Part shown: one piece after another, positions 55,002-61,242 of the stretch
Layout of the letters: each line of letters opens with the position of its first letter
How positions within the stretch are numbered: the first letter of the stretch is position 1
Source: Candidatus Omnitrophota bacterium
GTDB lineage: Bacteria; Omnitrophota; Gorgyraeia; Zapsychrales; Zapsychraceae
NCBI GenBank assembly: GCA_015233405.1
Contig: JADFXT010000003.1
Location: forward strand, 118,591-182,590
Direction: 5' to 3'
Length of the DNA: 64,000 nucleotides
Made by a program: the position numbers and the translations under genes
The notes under the pieces: model-generated
Told to the model about the DNA's origin: nothing
The model's input: only the letters and a program-made list of their open reading frames with translations
The model's database searches: none

Positions 55002-55277
55002 TTATTTGGACATAGGACAACACGCACACGAAGAATGGGAATCCTTTTTGTCCGATTTAGGACATTTTGGCGCATTGCCTGACGAGGGAGACTTCTTTTT
55101 ATAATCCGTCTCATAAAAGCCCGTGCCTTTAAAAATAACCCCGGTCCCTGCACCGATAAGACGAGTTAACTCATTCTTTCCGCATTTCGGACACTTCTTG
55201 AGTTTCTTCTCAGACATCGACTGAAGCGCCTCTAAGGTATGCCCACAGCTGGAGCACTCATATTGATAGGTCGGCAT
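55002..55277 (-). CDS. FmdB-family zinc-ribbon protein
   Basis: MPTYQYECSSCGH...KCPKCG (CxxC-CxxC type). Confidence 0.8.
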   Translation of the reverse strand: MPTYQYECSSCGHTLEALQSMSEKKLKKCPKCGKNELTRLIGAGTGVIFKGTGFYETDYKKKSPSSGNAPKCPKSDKKDSHSSCACCPMSK

Positions 55278-55302
55278 AATTCTCCTTTAATTGCTTTATG
55301 TT

Positions 55303-55407
55303 TGTCATCCCCGCGAAAGCGGGGATCCAGAACCAAGGGTTGAACTTCCAGCAACGATAAAAAATTTTAAAAGCATTTACTGGATTTCCGCTTCCGCGGG
55401 AATGACA
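55303..55407. repeat. Composite palindromic element, family 1, copy B
   Basis: TGTCATCCCCGCGAAAGCGGGGATCCAG ... 49 nt ... CTGGATTTCCGCTTCCGCGGGAATGACA. Confidence 0.85.
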
Positions 55408-55418
55408 GCCCTGGAACT

Positions 55419-56576
55419 TTACTTAAAAACCTTCTTGATTTTTTCCTTAATACTTTCCGATGAGCCGGAAATATTTTCACCGCTAACCCTGGCAAATTCT
55501 TCCAGTAATTTCTTCTGCTCCGTGGTTAAACTTTTCGGAACTTGGACCATGACCTTGGCATATTGATCGCCGGTCGCCCCGCCGTGAACGTTCGGCATTC
55601 CTTTATCTTTTAATCGAAAGACCCGACCGCTTTGTGTCCCCGAGGGGATTTTCATCGAGACCGGTCCGCCTAAAGTTGGCACAGAAACCTCACCGCCTAA
55701 AGCCGCGACAACAAAACTCACCGGAAGTTCAAGAGCAATATCGTCTCCATTGCGCTCAAAAGTATTGTGCGGGAGAACGTGAATATAAAGATAAAGATCG
55801 CCGTTGCCGTCACGTCCGACTTCGCCTTCATGCCGGACACGCAGCCGAGACGAATTATCAACTCCCGCCGGAATGGACACGTCGATGTTTCGCATGATCT
55901 TGACAGCGCCGCGGCCGCTACATTTCGGGCAATATTCGGTAATGACTTTCCCGGCGCCGTGACATTGATGGCACGTCTGTGCCATTCTAAAAAATCCGTT
56001 GGACATCACGACCTGGCCCCGGCCTCCGCAGGTAGTACAATTCTTTAATGCCGACGCATTCTTTGCGCCCGTTCCATTACACACCGAGCAAAACTCATTA
56101 CGGGGAACAGAGATCTTTCGTTTAGCGCCATGAAAGGCATCCTCAAGCGAGATCTCCATCTCATATTGAATATCCCGGCCTCTTTGAGCTCGACGGGAAG
56201 AACGGCCGCCAGCGCCTTCGCTAAAGAAATCAAATCCTCCTCCGCCTCCGCCGCCAAAAAATTGATTTAAAATGTCCCCTAAACCAGCTTCTTCAAAAAT
56301 ACTGCTAAAATCTGCGCCGCGGAAAATGTCATCTGCCGTAAAATTCTGGTCAATACCGGCATGCCCATGCTGGTCATATAATTGACGTTTCTTGGGATCA
56401 GATAAAACGCCATACGCCTCGGAAATTTCTTTAAACTTCTCCTCAGCTTCTTTTTTCTCCGCCTCGGGAACGCGGTCCGGATGGAATTTGAGCGCCATCG
56501 AACGATAAGCCTTCTTGATGTCCTGAAGGTCGGCCTTTTTATCAACCCCTAAAATTTCGTAGTAGTCTCTTTTCAT
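55419..56576 (-). CDS. dnaJ: Chaperone DnaJ
   Basis: J domain (DYYEILGV...HPDR), G/F region, four CxxCxGxG Zn motifs. I prefer the ATG at 56576 over the GTG at 56594. Confidence 0.95.
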   Translation of the reverse strand: MKRDYYEILGVDKKADLQDIKKAYRSMALKFHPDRVPEAEKKEAEEKFKEISEAYGVLSDPKKRQLYDQHGHAGIDQNFTADDIFRGADFSSIFEEAGLGDILNQFFGGGGGGGFDFFSEGAGGRSSRRAQRGRDIQYEMEISLEDAFHGAKRKISVPRNEFCSVCNGTGAKNASALKNCTTCGGRGQVVMSNGFFRMAQTCHQCHGAGKVITEYCPKCSGRGAVKIMRNIDVSIPAGVDNSSRLRVRHEGEVGRDGNGDLYLYIHVLPHNTFERNGDDIALELPVSFVVAALGGEVSVPTLGGPVSMKIPSGTQSGRVFRLKDKGMPNVHGGATGDQYAKVMVQVPKSLTTEQKKLLEEFARVSGENISGSSESIKEKIKKVFK

Positions 56577-56615
56577 ATTTAATCCTGATTGCACACACCT
56601 TAGAGCGCTATGATT

Positions 56616-56768
56616 TTACTTCACTGTATTTGGCGAAATACGAATGGTCTTACCATTCTCCCATATCGCAAGAGGGCGTCCTGTCTTTTTATGCCGCTCC
56701 ACAACTCCCCGCACCGCTTTCTTTAACGCGGCTTCAGCCTTATCCTGCAATGACATCCTTTTTTTCAT
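56616..56768 (-). CDS. Small 50-aa protein, third gene of the Bro-N / zeta-like module
   Basis: Below the ORF-track size cutoff. My own translation gives MKKRMSLQDKAEAALKKAVRGVVERHKKTGRPLAIWENGKTIRISPNTVK. Its ATG directly abuts the upstream TAA stop (TAAATG). Confidence 0.5.
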   Translation of the reverse strand: MKKRMSLQDKAEAALKKAVRGVVERHKKTGRPLAIWENGKTIRISPNTVK

Positions 56769-57347
56769 TTATGACCTCACACTTCTTTGAACTATTTCGA
56801 ACAAACAATCATTAAGCACTTCCCTGTGGCCGTTGTGCCTTTTCGCAATAAGTATCGGCTTTGCCTTGGAATTATCAAACAACATCCAGGAATCAAATAA
56901 CGGCTCGTACAGGGTAAAGAAATTATTGACGCCGCGGGAAAACCGCCGACGGACATCTTCGGCAGGGACATAATGCCCGCCTTCCTGAACTCTTTCTTTA
57001 ATACGGGCTATCGCCAATTCCGCGCTTGGAAGCCACAGAAAAAAAAGATGCGGCGCGTAACCTCTCCTCTTTAACTCAGTCAACAAGCCCACATAAGACT
57101 TGCCGGACAATGTCGTTTCAAACGCGAAATCAACACCACGCTTAGCGTATTCATCAATTTGCTGAAGCACGAGTTTACCGGCTTTAATGGCGGCAGCGCG
57201 AGGCCCAAAGGGGGCTAATCCTTGCGCTATCAGATCGGCATTTACAAAATTCGGGCAATTCACATATTCAGGCAGAAACATTCGGGCAAACGTCGTCTTA
57301 CCCGATCCGTTCGGCCCCGCAATAATGTAAACTGCCTTATTTTTCAT
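56769..57347 (-). CDS. Zeta-toxin-like / COG4185-type P-loop ATPase
   Basis: Walker A IIAGPNGSGKTT, 192 aa, zeta/AAA_33-like layout. Confidence 0.7.
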   Translation of the reverse strand: MKNKAVYIIAGPNGSGKTTFARMFLPEYVNCPNFVNADLIAQGLAPFGPRAAAIKAGKLVLQQIDEYAKRGVDFAFETTLSGKSYVGLLTELKRRGYAPHLFFLWLPSAELAIARIKERVQEGGHYVPAEDVRRRFSRGVNNFFTLYEPLFDSWMLFDNSKAKPILIAKRHNGHREVLNDCLFEIVQRSVRS

Positions 57348-57607
57348 ATTGTCCCAATTAGGTTTTTCATCCGTTGTTTATCGCCCGCTATCTCAACAGC
57401 AAGGGTATGTACAATTTGCACCCACCCTTTGGAAAGTTCAGGGTCACGCCTACGCATATCTTTAATATATCCATCCGGCTGGACAGAATCTGTTAAAGCC
57501 GCTACCACGTCAACGATAACAAGCCACCATTCTTTATTATGGATGGTCTTGCGAATTTCCTGTTTTCTAAATATCGCAATTTTGGTTGCGGTTATTTCTT
57601 GGTTCAT
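57344..57607 (-). CDS. Bro-N-like small DNA-binding protein
   Basis: IAIFRKQEIRKTIHNKEWWLVIVDVVAALTDS fits the Bro-N pattern (IR..., WW/WF, DV..AL). ATGA overlap with the downstream ATPase. Confidence 0.55.
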   Translation of the reverse strand: MNQEITATKIAIFRKQEIRKTIHNKEWWLVIVDVVAALTDSVQPDGYIKDMRRRDPELSKGWVQIVHTLAVEIAGDKQRMKNLIGTI

Positions 57608-57712
57608 ATTGTCTTACCTTCGACTCATAACACCCTTGGCCAATTACGCCTACAGCCCATTGAAACACCGCTGCTTATAGAAATCCATCGAAAACGTAGT
57701 GTAGTATGGAAA

Positions 57713-58543
57713 CTAATTCTTACTTAGCTTAATAAATTCATCCAATGACAAATAATCTTTATCCGGGAATAAAACTCGTGCCGATTCTTTCATAAAGCCC
57801 TTTTCATTTGAAACAATGCCATCAACGTCATTTAAATATACGAGATGCTCAATATCATCTTGTGAATTATTATCTAACTTCTGCTTCGTTACCGCAGCAT
57901 TCCATATAACAAACAATTCTCCTTCAACAAACTTATTGAAATGCGAGCAGCGATCTTTATGCTGTTGCCAATATTCAATAATGACCTCTTTAGAATCATG
58001 GGAGTTAATGCTTTTTTTAATTTTATAAATAGCTGTTGTTTCAAAAACACTATTAAAATACTCTTTAAATGAAGGATTACATTTTGAACCAAACATATCA
58101 CGAATTTCGCATAGCACTTTCCTATTTTGATCCTTCCTAGCTTCCCAGTTTTCAATATATTGTTGAATTTCTTTTTTCCCGTTATCTTCAATCTCATTTC
58201 CTTGAACCAGATTTTGAATACCCTCCCGTAAATAGGCATATGGAGAAAATAAATACTCGCTGGGACATTTCCCTTTCAACTCCATCGCATAAATTCCTTC
58301 AGAACCGCTTATCTCATTAAATATTCTCTGCCACTTGAAACCAAGAAGATATTTGATACAAGTTTTTAACTCTTCAGGCATTTTACCCCTGGAAGCAAAA
58401 TGAAAACACTCTTTCAATAAAGGCGGTGTAACATAAAATGACAACTTACCGCTCAAACATGCCCTTTCCAATCCAGCGGCTTTTAACTCATCTATTGACT
58501 TTTCATCGATTACACTAGAATCAAGAATAAACTTATAGCTCAT
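57713..58543 (-). CDS. Hypothetical protein (weak PIN-like termini)
   Basis: The 276-aa ORF is AT-rich. The N-terminus FILDSSVI and C-terminal DDIEHLVYLNDVDGIVSNEKGF loosely resemble the acidic-residue placement of PIN domains. ATGA overlap with the upstream gene. Confidence 0.5.
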   Translation of the reverse strand: MSYKFILDSSVIDEKSIDELKAAGLERACLSGKLSFYVTPPLLKECFHFASRGKMPEELKTCIKYLLGFKWQRIFNEISGSEGIYAMELKGKCPSEYLFSPYAYLREGIQNLVQGNEIEDNGKKEIQQYIENWEARKDQNRKVLCEIRDMFGSKCNPSFKEYFNSVFETTAIYKIKKSINSHDSKEVIIEYWQQHKDRCSHFNKFVEGELFVIWNAAVTKQKLDNNSQDDIEHLVYLNDVDGIVSNEKGFMKESARVLFPDKDYLSLDEFIKLSKN

Positions 58544-59112
58544 TTTTTCTTAGTTGTATAAATTCCCATCAACTTTTCCCCACTATCAAGATGAGCGTTC
58601 CACACGCCCTTTTTCCCATCCATCTCATATTCACCAATCAAAGTGGCTGATTTATTATTCCGATCAAGTCGTAAGGTTAATCTTCCGCCACCAATAGAAT
58701 ACCCCATGACACTATAAGGATCTGATTTTTGATAAGCTTCGACTTCATCCTTATCCCATCTACTTATTTGATACACAAATGATTGAACTATTAAATTACC
58801 CGACACAGGGCTTACCTCTGCCCTAGATTCAATGCATACACCGTCGGATTTATTGCAAGAGATATCGACCGTATTTACTGTTGGCGTTCCGTTATAAACA
58901 AACTGCCCGCCAGCATCACCAATCCAACTACCTTTTATTAAAATACTGCTAAGATCCGGATCATCAACAAATTGATACTTCGGCCAAAGAGTAATCGAAA
59001 CCTTTGCATCCTCTTGGCCAATTTGATTGTTAGTTTCAGCATAAATATGACTACCGAAACACAAAATCATGAAAATGACCCAGATTAAAGCTGTTATTTT
59101 TTTATAGAGAAT
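58540..59112 (-). CDS. Secreted hypothetical beta-rich protein, probably initiated at a non-canonical ATT
   Basis: The ORF track starts at ATG 59070, inside a signal peptide. The in-frame extension ILYKKITALIWVIF begins at ATT 59112, which lies 7 nt after a perfect AGGAGG. No ATG, GTG or TTG occurs in the open upstream stretch. Confidence 0.5.
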   Translation of the reverse strand: MLYKKITALIWVIFMILCFGSHIYAETNNQIGQEDAKVSITLWPKYQFVDDPDLSSILIKGSWIGDAGGQFVYNGTPTVNTVDISCNKSDGVCIESRAEVSPVSGNLIVQSFVYQISRWDKDEVEAYQKSDPYSVMGYSIGGGRLTLRLDRNNKSATLIGEYEMDGKKGVWNAHLDSGEKLMGIYTTKKK

Positions 59113-59304
59113 TTTACTTCCTCCTTCCCCAATGACGAAATCTATGAAATTCTGCTGTTGAGGTTATTATTAAAGTATCTAACTTCTCAAAATAATTTAA
59201 GCCAAAAACAGCCCTACAACGGCGCCTCTGAATCCCCGCTTTAGTTCGCCCTTCAATCACCATCCCGATTTGTTGTGGGATCGCCGAGGATCACAGAAGG
59301 ATAG

Positions 59305-61242
59305 TTATTTCCCATCCTCTGCTTTAAAATCAGCGTCGATGATATCGTCTTTCCCCTTACCAGAGCCATGATCTGTATCGGCTTGCGGCCCTGCATCTGG
59401 CCCGGCTTGAGGCTCAGCTTGTGGACCGCCTTGTTCCTGTCCGCCGCCAGCTGCCTGCTGAGACGCGGTTGATTTATAAACTTCCTCGGCGAGCTTATGG
59501 CTGGCCTTCTGCAATTCCTGCATCGCAGGTTCAATCTTGGCCCGGTCTTTGGTCTTGATCGCTTCGCGGAATTTCTCCAACTCTTTTTCCACGTTCGCTT
59601 TCTCGTCGGCGGAAATCTTGTCACCGTAATCCTTGACCGCTTTTTCCGTCGAATACAAAACCGCGTTCGCCTGATTTAATAGCTCAGCTTCTTCTTTACG
59701 CTTTTTATCATCCGCGGCATACTTTTCCGCTTCCTTGACCATTTTATCAATTTCCGCCTCGGACAATTTCGTCGACGCCGTGATCTTGATCGTCTGCTCT
59801 TTGCCGGTGCCTTTGTCCTTGGCCGTGACGTGAACAATTCCGTTGGTGTCGATATCAAACGTGACCTCGATCTGAGGAAGGCCGCGCGGTGCCGGCGGAA
59901 TGCCGACCAAGTCAAAGCGTCCTAATTCCGTATTGTCATTGGCCATCGGTCGTTCACCCTGAAGAACGCGGATGGTGACCGCGGTCTGATTTTCTTCTGC
60001 CGTCGAGAAAACCTGACTTTTCCTGACCGGAATGGTTGTATTTCTTTCAATTAATTTCGTAAAAACCCCACCTAAGGTCTCAATCCCTAAGGTCAAAGGA
60101 GTCACGTCGAGTAAAAGCATTTCCTTGGCTTCACCTTTAATGATGCCCGCCTGAATGGCCGCACCTAACGCTACGCATTCCATCGGGTCAATGCCGCGCT
60201 CGATCTTTTGTCCGACCTCGCGTTCCACAAACTCTTGCACGATCGGCATGCGCGTTGGACCTCCGACGAGAATGACACGGTCAACCTTGACATCGCTTCC
60301 TAATTTTCCAGAAGCATCTTTAAGTGCTTGGACAATAGGCCCACGGCAGCGCTCGATAATCGGAGCAACTAAGCTTTCCAATTTCGCGCGTTCAATTTTT
60401 AAATTCAAATGTTTTGGGCCCGATGCGTCCGCCGTAATAAACGGCAGGTTCACGTCGGTAGAAACCGTGCTGGAGAGTTCCACTTTGGCTTTTTCCGCGG
60501 CTTCGCGAAGACGCTGAAACGCCATTTTGTCATTCTTTAGATCAATGCCGGATTCTTTCTTGAATTCCTGCGTAATATAATCGATAAGGACATTATCCAT
60601 ATCGGTACCGCCTAAAAGATTGTCTCCATGCGTCGAGAGAACTTCAAACGTCGCGGCCTTGTGGTCATTGTCCCAACCCATTTCAAGAATGGTGACGTCG
60701 AGAGTTCCGCCGCCGAAATCAAAGACCATGATCTTTTGTTCTTTGCCGGCCTTGTCCAATCCATAAGCCAAACAGGCAGCCGTCGGTTCGTTGATAATGC
60801 GAAGCACCTTAAGACCTGCAATTTCCCCTGCGTCTTTGGTGGCTTGACGCTGGTTGTCATTAAAATAAGCCGGCACCGTAATGACCGCCTCGTCAATGGT
60901 GTCGCCTAAAAATTTCTCCGCGTCCGCCTTGATCTTCTGTAAAATAAAAGAACTGATCTGTTGGGGCGTAAATTCTTTATCAAAAACTTTAAATTTTTCG
61001 TTGGTGCCCATTTTTCTCTTGGCTGCATACACCGTGCCTTCCGAATTAACCGGCGCCTGACGACGAGCAGGTTCGCCCACGAGCCTTTGTCCGTCCTTGG
61101 TAAACGCCACGAACGACGGGAATGCCTTTCCCGATGCCACTCCCGCGCCTTCGGCGGAAGGAATAATGACGGGTCGGCCGCCTTCCATCACGGCAGCAGC
61201 TGAGTTTGAAGTTCCTAAGTCGATTCCGATTGCTTTAGCCAT
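59305..61242 (-). CDS. dnaK: Chaperone DnaK (Hsp70)
   Basis: [30 protein letters not shown], 645 aa. Confidence 0.97.

Follow-up and report, generated by a model that had tools for sequence, protein, structure and literature searches.

The toxins of the epsilon/zeta pair (part of omega-epsilon-zeta of plasmids pSM19035 and pDB101) and of the PezAT pair of Streptococcus pneumoniae are 250-290 amino acids (aa) long and carry an N-terminal antitoxin-binding helix and a GTXR site for UDP-GlcNAc, and their antitoxins are three-helix-bundle proteins encoded upstream, with a helix-turn-helix (HTH) fusion in PezA. A shorter toxin, Rv0366c of Mycobacterium tuberculosis (PezT-Mtb, 197 aa), is bacteriostatic when expressed and is rescued by Rv0367c (PezA-Mtb) (Tandon et al. 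2019, PMC6362051); its toxicity requires K15, D36 and R116 (PMC6362051), and it has neither the GTXR motif nor the N-terminal helix (PMC6362051, supplement Fig. S1). A 2023 review describes this type of short zeta pair as restricted to Actinobacteria, and its survey of 3,086 PezT/Zeta homologues found many without a known antitoxin, new antitoxins being sought only upstream (PMC10532202). In avrRxo1-arc1 of Xanthomonas oryzae pv. oryzicola, the gene of the zeta-family NAD 3'-kinase comes first and a small neutralising gene lies directly 3' of it (PMC4938570). Here we describe a locus in a 64,000-nucleotide (nt) stretch of Candidatus Omnitrophota bacterium (GenBank assembly GCA_015233405.1, contig JADFXT010000003.1, positions 118,591 to 182,590; the whole stretch is called the window below), in which the gene of a 192-aa zeta-like kinase (ATPase) is followed by an open reading frame (ORF) of 50 aa. 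We read the two genes (57347..56616, minus strand) as a type II toxin-antitoxin-like cassette in which the toxin gene comes first and the antitoxin is small and new, and give this reading a probability of roughly 0.6.

A preliminary description of the locus, made from the sequence alone, had placed three chained ORFs of 87, 192 and 50 aa here, and all three were found on the minus strand at exactly those coordinates. The ATG of the 192-aa gene overlaps the stop codon of the 87-aa ORF as ATGA, and the ATG of the 50-aa gene abuts the TAA of the 192-aa gene (TAAATG, gap 0 nt).

A minimal zeta/PezT-family kinase

Profile matches and a predicted fold establish the 192-aa protein as a true P-loop kinase of the zeta/PezT family, of minimal size. 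It matches the Pfam family Zeta_toxin (PF06414) with 46.2 bits (cut-off 22.3, E 4.8e-12), and the AAA_33 profile also matches. The family is a known one: the kinase is already annotated as 'zeta toxin family protein', and its homologues carry a precomputed PF06414 label. Sequence and profile searches of the PDB with the 192-aa protein returned P-loop or noise matches only. The AlphaFold2 (AF2) model, built with 44 homologues, has a predicted local distance difference test score (pLDDT) of 87.5 and a predicted template modelling score (pTM) of 0.83. When the model was compared with the PDB by Foldseek, zeta-family toxins outranked every other kinase family: the top match was AvrRxo1 (4z8q; E 2.7e-9, template modelling score relative to the query (TMq) 0.80), accompanied by PezT (2p5t, E 1.3e-8) and zeta (1gvn; E 2.3e-8, TMq 0.76). 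The range for the PF06414 toxins of the epsilon/zeta and PezAT pairs was TMq 0.62-0.76. Bacterial polynucleotide kinases (4jst, 4gp7 and 4mde) came next, with a score relative to the target (TMt) of ~0.7. AvrRxo1, the best fold match, is a type III-secreted effector of 421 aa, in contrast to the 192 aa found here, and its sequence identity to the kinase is 17-18%.

The Walker A motif GPNGSGKT(T) occupies residues 11-19, and in an alignment of 41 sequences G11, N13, G14, G16, K17, T18 and T19 are invariant, as are D38, E77, R115, R119, G123-G124-H125 and R135. The catalytic lysine of the P-loop is K46 in zeta, K45 in PezT and K15 in Rv0366c; the catalytic aspartate that deprotonates the substrate hydroxyl is D67 in zeta, D66 in PezT, D36 in Rv0366c and D193 in AvrRxo1; and the lid arginine (R158 in zeta, R116 in Rv0366c) serves in transition-state stabilisation or antitoxin contact. 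In the kinase, D38 lies 21 residues behind K17, in the motif FVNAD. The ATPase family was aligned by hhalign with the authentic zeta gene product of plasmid pDB101, and the P-loop lysine, the Walker-B-like glutamate and the lid arginine align: K17 pairs with K46, E77 pairs with E116, and the segment IARIKERV falls on the GTIER(158) lid. In the same alignment, the position of E116-G-T-G-R120 in zeta is taken by E77-T-T-L-S81. The GTXR motif for UDP-GlcNAc is thus lost, suggesting that the substrate of the kinase is probably not UDP-GlcNAc. The N-terminal helix of zeta and PezT (~residues 1-32) is absent as well; a predicted strand at residues 4-10 comes first and leads into the P-loop, which starts at residue 11.

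Both absences are shared with PezT-Mtb, which is of similar length. The hidden Markov model (HMM) of the kinase family aligns at positions 5-175 with Rv0366c and with the mycobacterial homologue of MSHD3 (42 and 79 bits), and the motifs FVNAD, ET, RxxxRVxxGGHxVP and DNS line up. In Rv0366c the motifs GPNxxGK, FVNAD (D36 for D38), ET, RxxxRV-x-GGH-x-VP (R116/H122 for R119/H125) and DNS stand at nearly the same positions as in the kinase, with VERVRHRV-x-GGH of Rv0366c opposite IARIKERV. The alignment and the motif match therefore assign the 192-aa protein to the short zeta/PezT clade together with PezT-Mtb, with a catalytic apparatus that is predicted to be intact. The zeta-like nature that the preliminary description had seen in the ATPase is hence borne out by the Pfam score above the cut-off, by the AvrRxo1, PezT and zeta fold matches, and by the alignment to Rv0366c over the full length.

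A conserved 50-aa partner downstream of the kinase

Since 73 ORFs of at least 30 aa are found within 6.5 kb, a bare ORF of 50 codons is uninformative, and conservation has to decide. The kinase protein search gave 7,971 significant matches. A genome scan with one genome per species confirmed 493 ATPase relatives, and 80 loci were kept for comparison. By tblastn, a homologue of the 50-aa protein lies on the same strand directly 3' of the ATPase in 79 of the 80 loci; the contig of the 80th ends inside the ATPase. Nearly all loci have a spacing of -4 to +17 nt between the ATPase stop and the partner, and one locus has an overlap of 29 nt. Differences in the 50-aa gene by codon position are 0.18/0.08/0.50, and the ratio of nonsynonymous to synonymous substitution rates (dN/dS; NG86) is ~0.065. 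A Shine-Dalgarno-like motif, mostly GAGG, stands within 18 nt 5' of the partner start in 63 of 68 related loci; here it falls within the last codons of the ATPase gene, which points to translational coupling. The linkage, the dN/dS and the ribosome-binding site together indicate that the 50-aa ORF is a translated, selected gene.

The preliminary description had left the antitoxin role open to either small partner and had proposed to ask which of them is kept beside the ATPase in homologous loci. The comparison separates the two: the 50-aa gene is retained as just described, and the Bro-N-like gene is found in none of the 80 loci and is truncated here. Judged by conservation, only the 50-aa protein is credible as the antitoxin.

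The 50-aa sequence has no exact match in a collection of 5.8 billion protein clusters (the best is 98% identical), whereas both larger products of this metagenome-assembled genome, of 87 and 192 aa, are present at 100%. This fits the 50-aa ORF being unannotated in this genome, as the preliminary description had noted. The consensus of the partner family is MKKRMSLQDKAEAALKxAVRxVVERHKKTGRPLAVWxNGKxVxISP, and the AF2 model of the 50-aa protein shows one long helix (residues 7-29) and a beta-hairpin (33-37/40-44) at a pLDDT of 84.6. The protein is basic, with an isoelectric point (pI) of 11.1 compared with 9.7 for the kinase; the family medians are 10.9 and 9.8. No family in Pfam, NCBIfam, PHROG or PADLOC was found for the 50-aa protein, and a Pfam scan of 109 members of the partner family gave a match only in one outlier of 1445 aa. 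This outlier (P0405) has CarboxypepD_reg repeats and is matched by the 50-aa profile in eight stretches, where the hairpins are probably alike by chance. When 1.84 billion representatives were searched with a profile, at least 877 partner clusters at 50% identity were found (E <= 1e-3), nearly all of 40-100 aa. We regard the partner as a new small-protein family.

Of five distant partners (36-45% identical), four lie immediately behind an ATPase homologue. The fifth, P0508 (71 aa, on three contigs), is an orphan with no detectable ATPase homologue upstream; on one of the contigs (L105) ~760 nt without a called gene precede it, with a BrnT/BrnA pair beyond. P0508 may be an antitoxin left behind after loss of its toxin. 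Two variants of the domain were also seen. In P0407 (112 aa, probably cut by a contig edge), the C-terminus of an ATPase stands in frame with the 50-aa domain, so that the sequence appears to be an in-frame fusion of ATPase and partner, and P0385 (129 aa) carries a tandem duplication of the domain.

The two genes form a mobile cassette

The kinase gene and the 50-aa gene are a horizontally mobile two-gene cassette, which lies here between dnaK and dnaJ. When the window was compared with related loci by blastn, homology was limited to positions 57348-56615, from the ATG of the ATPase to the stop of the 50-aa gene, which defines the unit; only in two loci does the homology of the cassette DNA begin at 57361. 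The upstream neighbours differ in every related locus, and the upstream regions are not conserved. The distance matrices of kinase and partner are correlated over 78 loci (Spearman 0.74): the two genes are inherited together, and partners are not shuffled. Relatives at 60-90% identity occur in Omnitrophota, Elusimicrobia, Planctomycetota, Patescibacteria, Syntrophaceae, Clostridia and Bacteroidota bins, and three assemblies (CP070837, JAGVEL01 and JAKLHJ01) have two loci each. Among the neighbours of the cassette are a tyrosine recombinase (integrase), HTH genes, a PemK toxin-antitoxin pair, AAA_14/DUF4143 and DUF1016 genes. On a conjugative plasmid of Legionella pneumophila, the pair lies directly behind a Tn3-family transposase. 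Neither the ATPase sequence nor its alignment found relatives in the IMG/VR viral contigs; therefore, we make no claim that the pair is carried by phages. On an Omnitrophota contig, a partial second ATPase 5' end (121 nt, 81% identical to the window) lies ~2.4 kb upstream of a complete cassette, which suggests past duplication or decay of the cassette.

A further homologue, 55% identical and followed by a gene of 59 aa, is present on plasmid pSYSG of Synechocystis. It lies inside an island that Kopfmann et al. called a defence island; they listed the sll8001-ssl8005 set of pSYSG as toxin-antitoxin-related, short of their criteria (PMC4963859). By an inferred match of locus tags, the pSYSG pair apparently corresponds to genes in this set. 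The region is a dense toxin-antitoxin and defence island. A 96-aa gene of the nucleotidyltransferase family overlaps the homologue upstream, and a DUF433/PIN pair and the S subunit of a type I restriction-modification system lie further upstream. Downstream there are a DUF4433 gene and a macro-domain gene, which by their domain names look like a DarT/DarG-type pair.

Possible function of the cassette

Several generic traits of type II toxin-antitoxin systems were found together at these loci: two small, co-directional, coupled genes that move as a unit, stand in variable and mobile contexts, and are multi-copy in some assemblies. The comparisons show the family to which the kinase belongs, that the 50-aa gene is conserved and coding, how strictly the two are linked, where the cassette begins and ends, and that its surroundings vary; toxicity, neutralisation, physical binding, substrate and regulation are all parts that we infer. 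In the preferred reading, the free kinase would phosphorylate an essential nucleotide-type metabolite, more likely an NAD-like compound or another substrate than UDP-GlcNAc, and growth would be arrested, as it is by Rv0366c, AvrRxo1, zeta and PezT. The 50-aa protein, made by coupled translation, would bind the kinase, perhaps through the conserved small-residue helix face A11, A14, A18, V22 and H26, and would block the ATP or substrate site in the way of epsilon, PezA and Arc1. A faster turnover of the 50-aa protein would make the pair addictive, or responsive to stress or phage.

The expected logic, a kinase toxin whose nucleotide site is closed off by a small protein, is that of epsilon/zeta and PezAT, and the toxin-first order has a precedent in the zeta superfamily because avrRxo1 precedes arc1 (PMC4938570); that pair is also horizontally transferred and stands in varying contexts (PMC4938570, PMC5491322). 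However, the partner resembles none of the described antitoxins. In contrast to the upstream three-helix bundles of epsilon and PezA, it is a downstream protein of one helix and a hairpin, and the profiles for epsilon and PezA (Epsilon_antitox, HTH_3) do not match it. The antitoxin of PezT-Mtb is an upstream RHH/ParD-like protein of 129 aa, unrelated to the helix-hairpin found here. Arc1 is a helical protein of 98 aa with 3-4 helices and a motif of its own, KExFD...(Y/L)ExxYY, which is absent from the partner consensus, and the model of the 50-aa protein has no significant Foldseek match in the PDB, which includes the Arc1 complex 4z8q. Meanwhile, the omega repressor of omega-epsilon-zeta has no counterpart at this locus.

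Several points weigh against reading the pair as toxin and antitoxin. The best-known zeta antitoxin, epsilon, is acidic. Here both proteins are strongly basic, and a basic antitoxin would be unusual, a hint that nucleic acid may be bound. No DNA-binding domain that could serve in autoregulation is recognisable in the 50-aa protein, which has no match in the PDB by sequence and a best Foldseek E value of 1.8. The kinase is 80-92% conserved among its top 120 matches, and in our judgement such protein conservation exceeds what is expected of a toxin-antitoxin pair. The alignment to zeta itself by hhalign reaches a probability of 63% and leaves D38 unaligned with D67; as this probability is modest, the kinase is assigned to the family by its Pfam score, its fold match and its alignment to Rv0366c, whose sequence was taken by optical character recognition from a supplementary figure (PMC6362051). 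A literature search found no publication on the kinase subfamily. Finally, distant homologues on plasmids (30-38% identical; loci L094-L098) have an unrelated small gene upstream instead. These are plasmids of Escherichia coli, Agrobacterium (pTi), Acinetobacter, Lactiplantibacillus (L. plantarum) and Piscirickettsia, in which hypothetical genes of 61-82 aa abut or overlap the kinase start. The difference suggests that the type of partner is clade-specific, so that the downstream 50-aa partner marks one clade among broader pairs of a small gene and a short zeta kinase.

The upstream small ORFs of these five homologues were considered as members of the 50-aa family, and none is detectably related. 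Those of E. coli and Piscirickettsia share the motif G(R/V)PIYY...YPDG(R/T)K, which loosely recalls GRPLAVW.NGK of the partner; the similarity is not significant and was not used. The zeta-family gene of Acinetobacter is ~500 aa long.

The most substantial alternative, though we consider it unlikely, is a two-subunit enzyme or a defence pair, in which the kinase acts on nucleic acid (for example the 5'-OH of RNA or tRNA) or on another polyanion and the basic 50-aa protein, instead of inhibiting it, binds nucleic acid as a subunit with an accessory, specificity or regulatory role. The basic character of both proteins, the rank of the polynucleotide kinases next to the zeta family in the fold comparison, the unusually high conservation across phyla, and the absence of the GTXR motif are all consistent with it. 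However, the nearest characterised homologue, Rv0366c, is a toxin neutralised by the product of its neighbour gene, the contexts of the cassette are typical of toxin-antitoxin and defence islands, the pair matches no PADLOC defence model, and relatives are lacking in the IMG/VR contigs. The basic proteins, the lost sugar-nucleotide site and the likeness to polynucleotide kinases also mean that the kinase could act on RNA, on DNA or on the partner itself, the 50-aa protein then being a new nucleic-acid-binding or phospho-regulated kind of partner. We consider this improbable; if true, it would be a new mechanism in the zeta superfamily, borne by a mobile cassette that is very widespread and conserved to an exceptional degree.

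A change of roles, in which the 50-aa protein is itself the substrate of the kinase in a type VII-like relationship, or the small protein is harmful and the kinase restrains it, is less probable still. It could draw on the serine or threonine that is common in the family at partner position 6 behind basic residues (KKRMS, KKRLT), yet an S/T-x-x-D/E at the start of a helix is equally a helix N-cap, and the residue is not invariant. The 50-aa protein fits no antitoxin fold, and the small gene exists without an ATPase in the orphan P0508; however, orphan antitoxins are expected after toxin loss, and arc1 persists once avrRxo1 is inactivated (PMC4938570). Moreover, kinase homologues are toxic alone (PMC6362051).

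The Bro-N-like ORF is a gene remnant

Of the three profiles proposed in the preliminary description, Zeta_toxin and AAA_33 recognised the ATPase, and Bro-N did not recognise the 87-aa ORF, which has no Pfam match at E <= 1. The ORF is matched by PDC-S13, a PADLOC candidate defence gene (E 2.5e-19, model positions 4-81 of 286), and its relatives of 110-150 aa carry Bro-N (PF02498), the domain of prophage antirepressor/DinD-like proteins. The likeness to Bro-N proteins and PDC-S13 covers the first ~80 residues. In alignment, the ORF tracks its Bro-N relatives to GDKQRM (residue ~80) and continues with seven unrelated codons; the conserved NCANTEGIFRIIQSIPSPKAEPFKRW segment, which belongs to the C-terminal half of the Bro-N domain, is missing. 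Unlike Bro-N proteins, it thus has no second half of the domain and no C-terminal domain, and it is not linked to the kinase elsewhere. This alignment shows the ORF to be what is left of a truncated Bro-N gene.

The preliminary description had joined all three ORFs into one addiction-like module, with the Bro-N-like protein as a possible regulator or antitoxin beside the kinase and the 50-aa protein. The chaining of the ORFs without spacers, the ATGA overlap and a probable co-transcription at this locus would agree with such a module; however, no third gene is conserved. A Bro-N homologue is found in none of the 80 ATPase loci, the homology of the cassette begins at the ATG of the kinase, the domain is truncated with its last seven codons made up of junction sequence, and similar Bro-N fragments elsewhere precede unrelated genes. 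A three-gene module is therefore very unlikely, and the Bro-N ORF is very probably not a component. The lack of Bro-N in related loci and the confinement of homology to the cassette also make the ATGA overlap a local junction rather than a conserved design. In calling a tripartite arrangement atypical, the preliminary description overlooked the founding omega-epsilon-zeta system, which itself has three genes. Least probable of all is a housekeeping kinase for nucleotides or sugars that works alone, beside an incidental small ORF. The generic P-loop kinase fold (AAA_33) would allow it, but the variable context, the multi-copy gene, the plasmid- and transposon-borne relatives, and the strong purifying selection and strict linkage of the small ORF contradict it.

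The junction between the Bro-N-like ORF and the ATPase gene also contains a weak GGGA ribosome-binding site of the latter. As the Bro-N-derived sequence ends only ~20 nt before the ATPase start, transcription is probably from the Bro-N promoter, and the Bro-N region would probably supply both promoter and leader of the cassette here.

Other Omnitrophota genomes also contain truncated Bro-N fragments, 78-89 aa long, and the cargo behind them differs from case to case. One stands between birA and bioB with no cargo called; the others are followed by an 86-aa membrane-like ORF behind a truncated integrase, or by a 255-aa gene, an unrelated AAA_33 kinase and a Y1 transposase. Their DNA is 76-79% similar to the window, and in all four the similarity ends at window position 57412; in L110 and L111 it reaches 44 nt 5' of the start codon. 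The shared break point may mark a hot spot of recombination, or else a mobile-element leader. The 177-aa AAA_33 kinase behind the fragment in L112 was considered as a relative of the ATPase and rejected, as only its P-loop matches.

Genes around the cassette

The insert between dnaK and dnaJ is ~2.7 kb long and comprises the three abutting ORFs and two further ORFs of 176 and 276 aa. It is a mosaic in GC content, which is 31-38% in the genes of 276 and 176 aa and 46-50% in the cassette, compared with ~50% in dnaK and dnaJ. The 176-aa and 276-aa ORFs form a second minus-strand pair (57713-59070) with an overlap of 4 nt. Profile scans against Pfam and NCBIfam assigned no family to either; residues 25-66 of the 276-aa protein have a sub-threshold resemblance to PIN_5/RNA-ligase-partner only. 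This pair looks like a separate, horizontally acquired module, and hence the spacer between dnaK and dnaJ may be an insertion hot spot. Just 3' of dnaJ there is an ORF of 91 aa with two CxxC pairs (MPTYQYECSSCGH...CPKCG), which presumably resembles FmdB-type zinc-ribbon proteins. A promoter and terminator scan of 55300-59400 found sites no more numerous than in shuffled sequence, and no promoter was assigned. The coordinates of the features are collected in Table 1.

Table 1. Positions of the features discussed, in the window unless a locus or accession is given
Feature	Position	Strand	Remark
ORF 1, 87 aa	57607..57344	minus	C-terminally truncated, Bro-N-like
ORF 2, 192 aa (ATPase)	57347..56769	minus	short zeta/PezT-family P-loop kinase, putative toxin
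ORF 3, 50 aa	56768..56616	minus	basic protein, putative antitoxin/partner, no annotation in genome
GAGG Shine-Dalgarno-like motif of the 50-aa gene	56775-56778	minus	within 3' end of ATPase gene
Bro-N/ATPase junction, 20 nt	57348..57367	minus	encodes non-homologous tail KNLIGTI* of the 87-aa ORF
dnaK	59305-61242		flanks the insert
176-aa ORF	58540-59070	minus	
276-aa ORF	57713-58543	minus	
dnaJ	55419-56594		flanks the insert on the other side
91-aa ORF	55002-55277	minus	
Window counterpart of Bro-N fragments	57412-57651		
Truncated Bro-N fragment	L109:3501-3737		
Truncated Bro-N fragments	L110/L111:3501-3746		
Truncated Bro-N fragment	L112:3501-3770		
Partial second ATPase 5' end	L007:1546-1665		
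Orphan partner P0508	L105:3001-3216		
Orphan partner P0508	L106:594-809		
Orphan partner P0508	L107:862-1077		
pSYSG locus L091	NC_005231.1 1351-6848		

Implications for the zeta family

What is new here is the conserved downstream 50-aa partner family, which is undescribed in the literature searched; a gene order inverted with respect to zeta, PezT and Rv0366c; and the resolution of an apparent three-gene chain into a cassette of two genes and the gene remnant to which it was joined. For annotation, the lesson is that the 87-aa Bro-N ORF is such a remnant and not a component of the module, and that a 50-aa partner, overlooked in this genome, is often overlooked by annotation pipelines. The lost UDP-GlcNAc site and the basic charge leave the choice of substrate wide, as for Rv0366c. 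The pSYSG plasmid of Synechocystis and the Legionella pneumophila plasmid offer cultivable entry points. A large clade of short zeta-like kinases thus has a conserved partner downstream; if its function as a toxin-antitoxin system is confirmed, the partner would be a new minimal antitoxin family, and would explain some of the apparently orphan zeta toxins.

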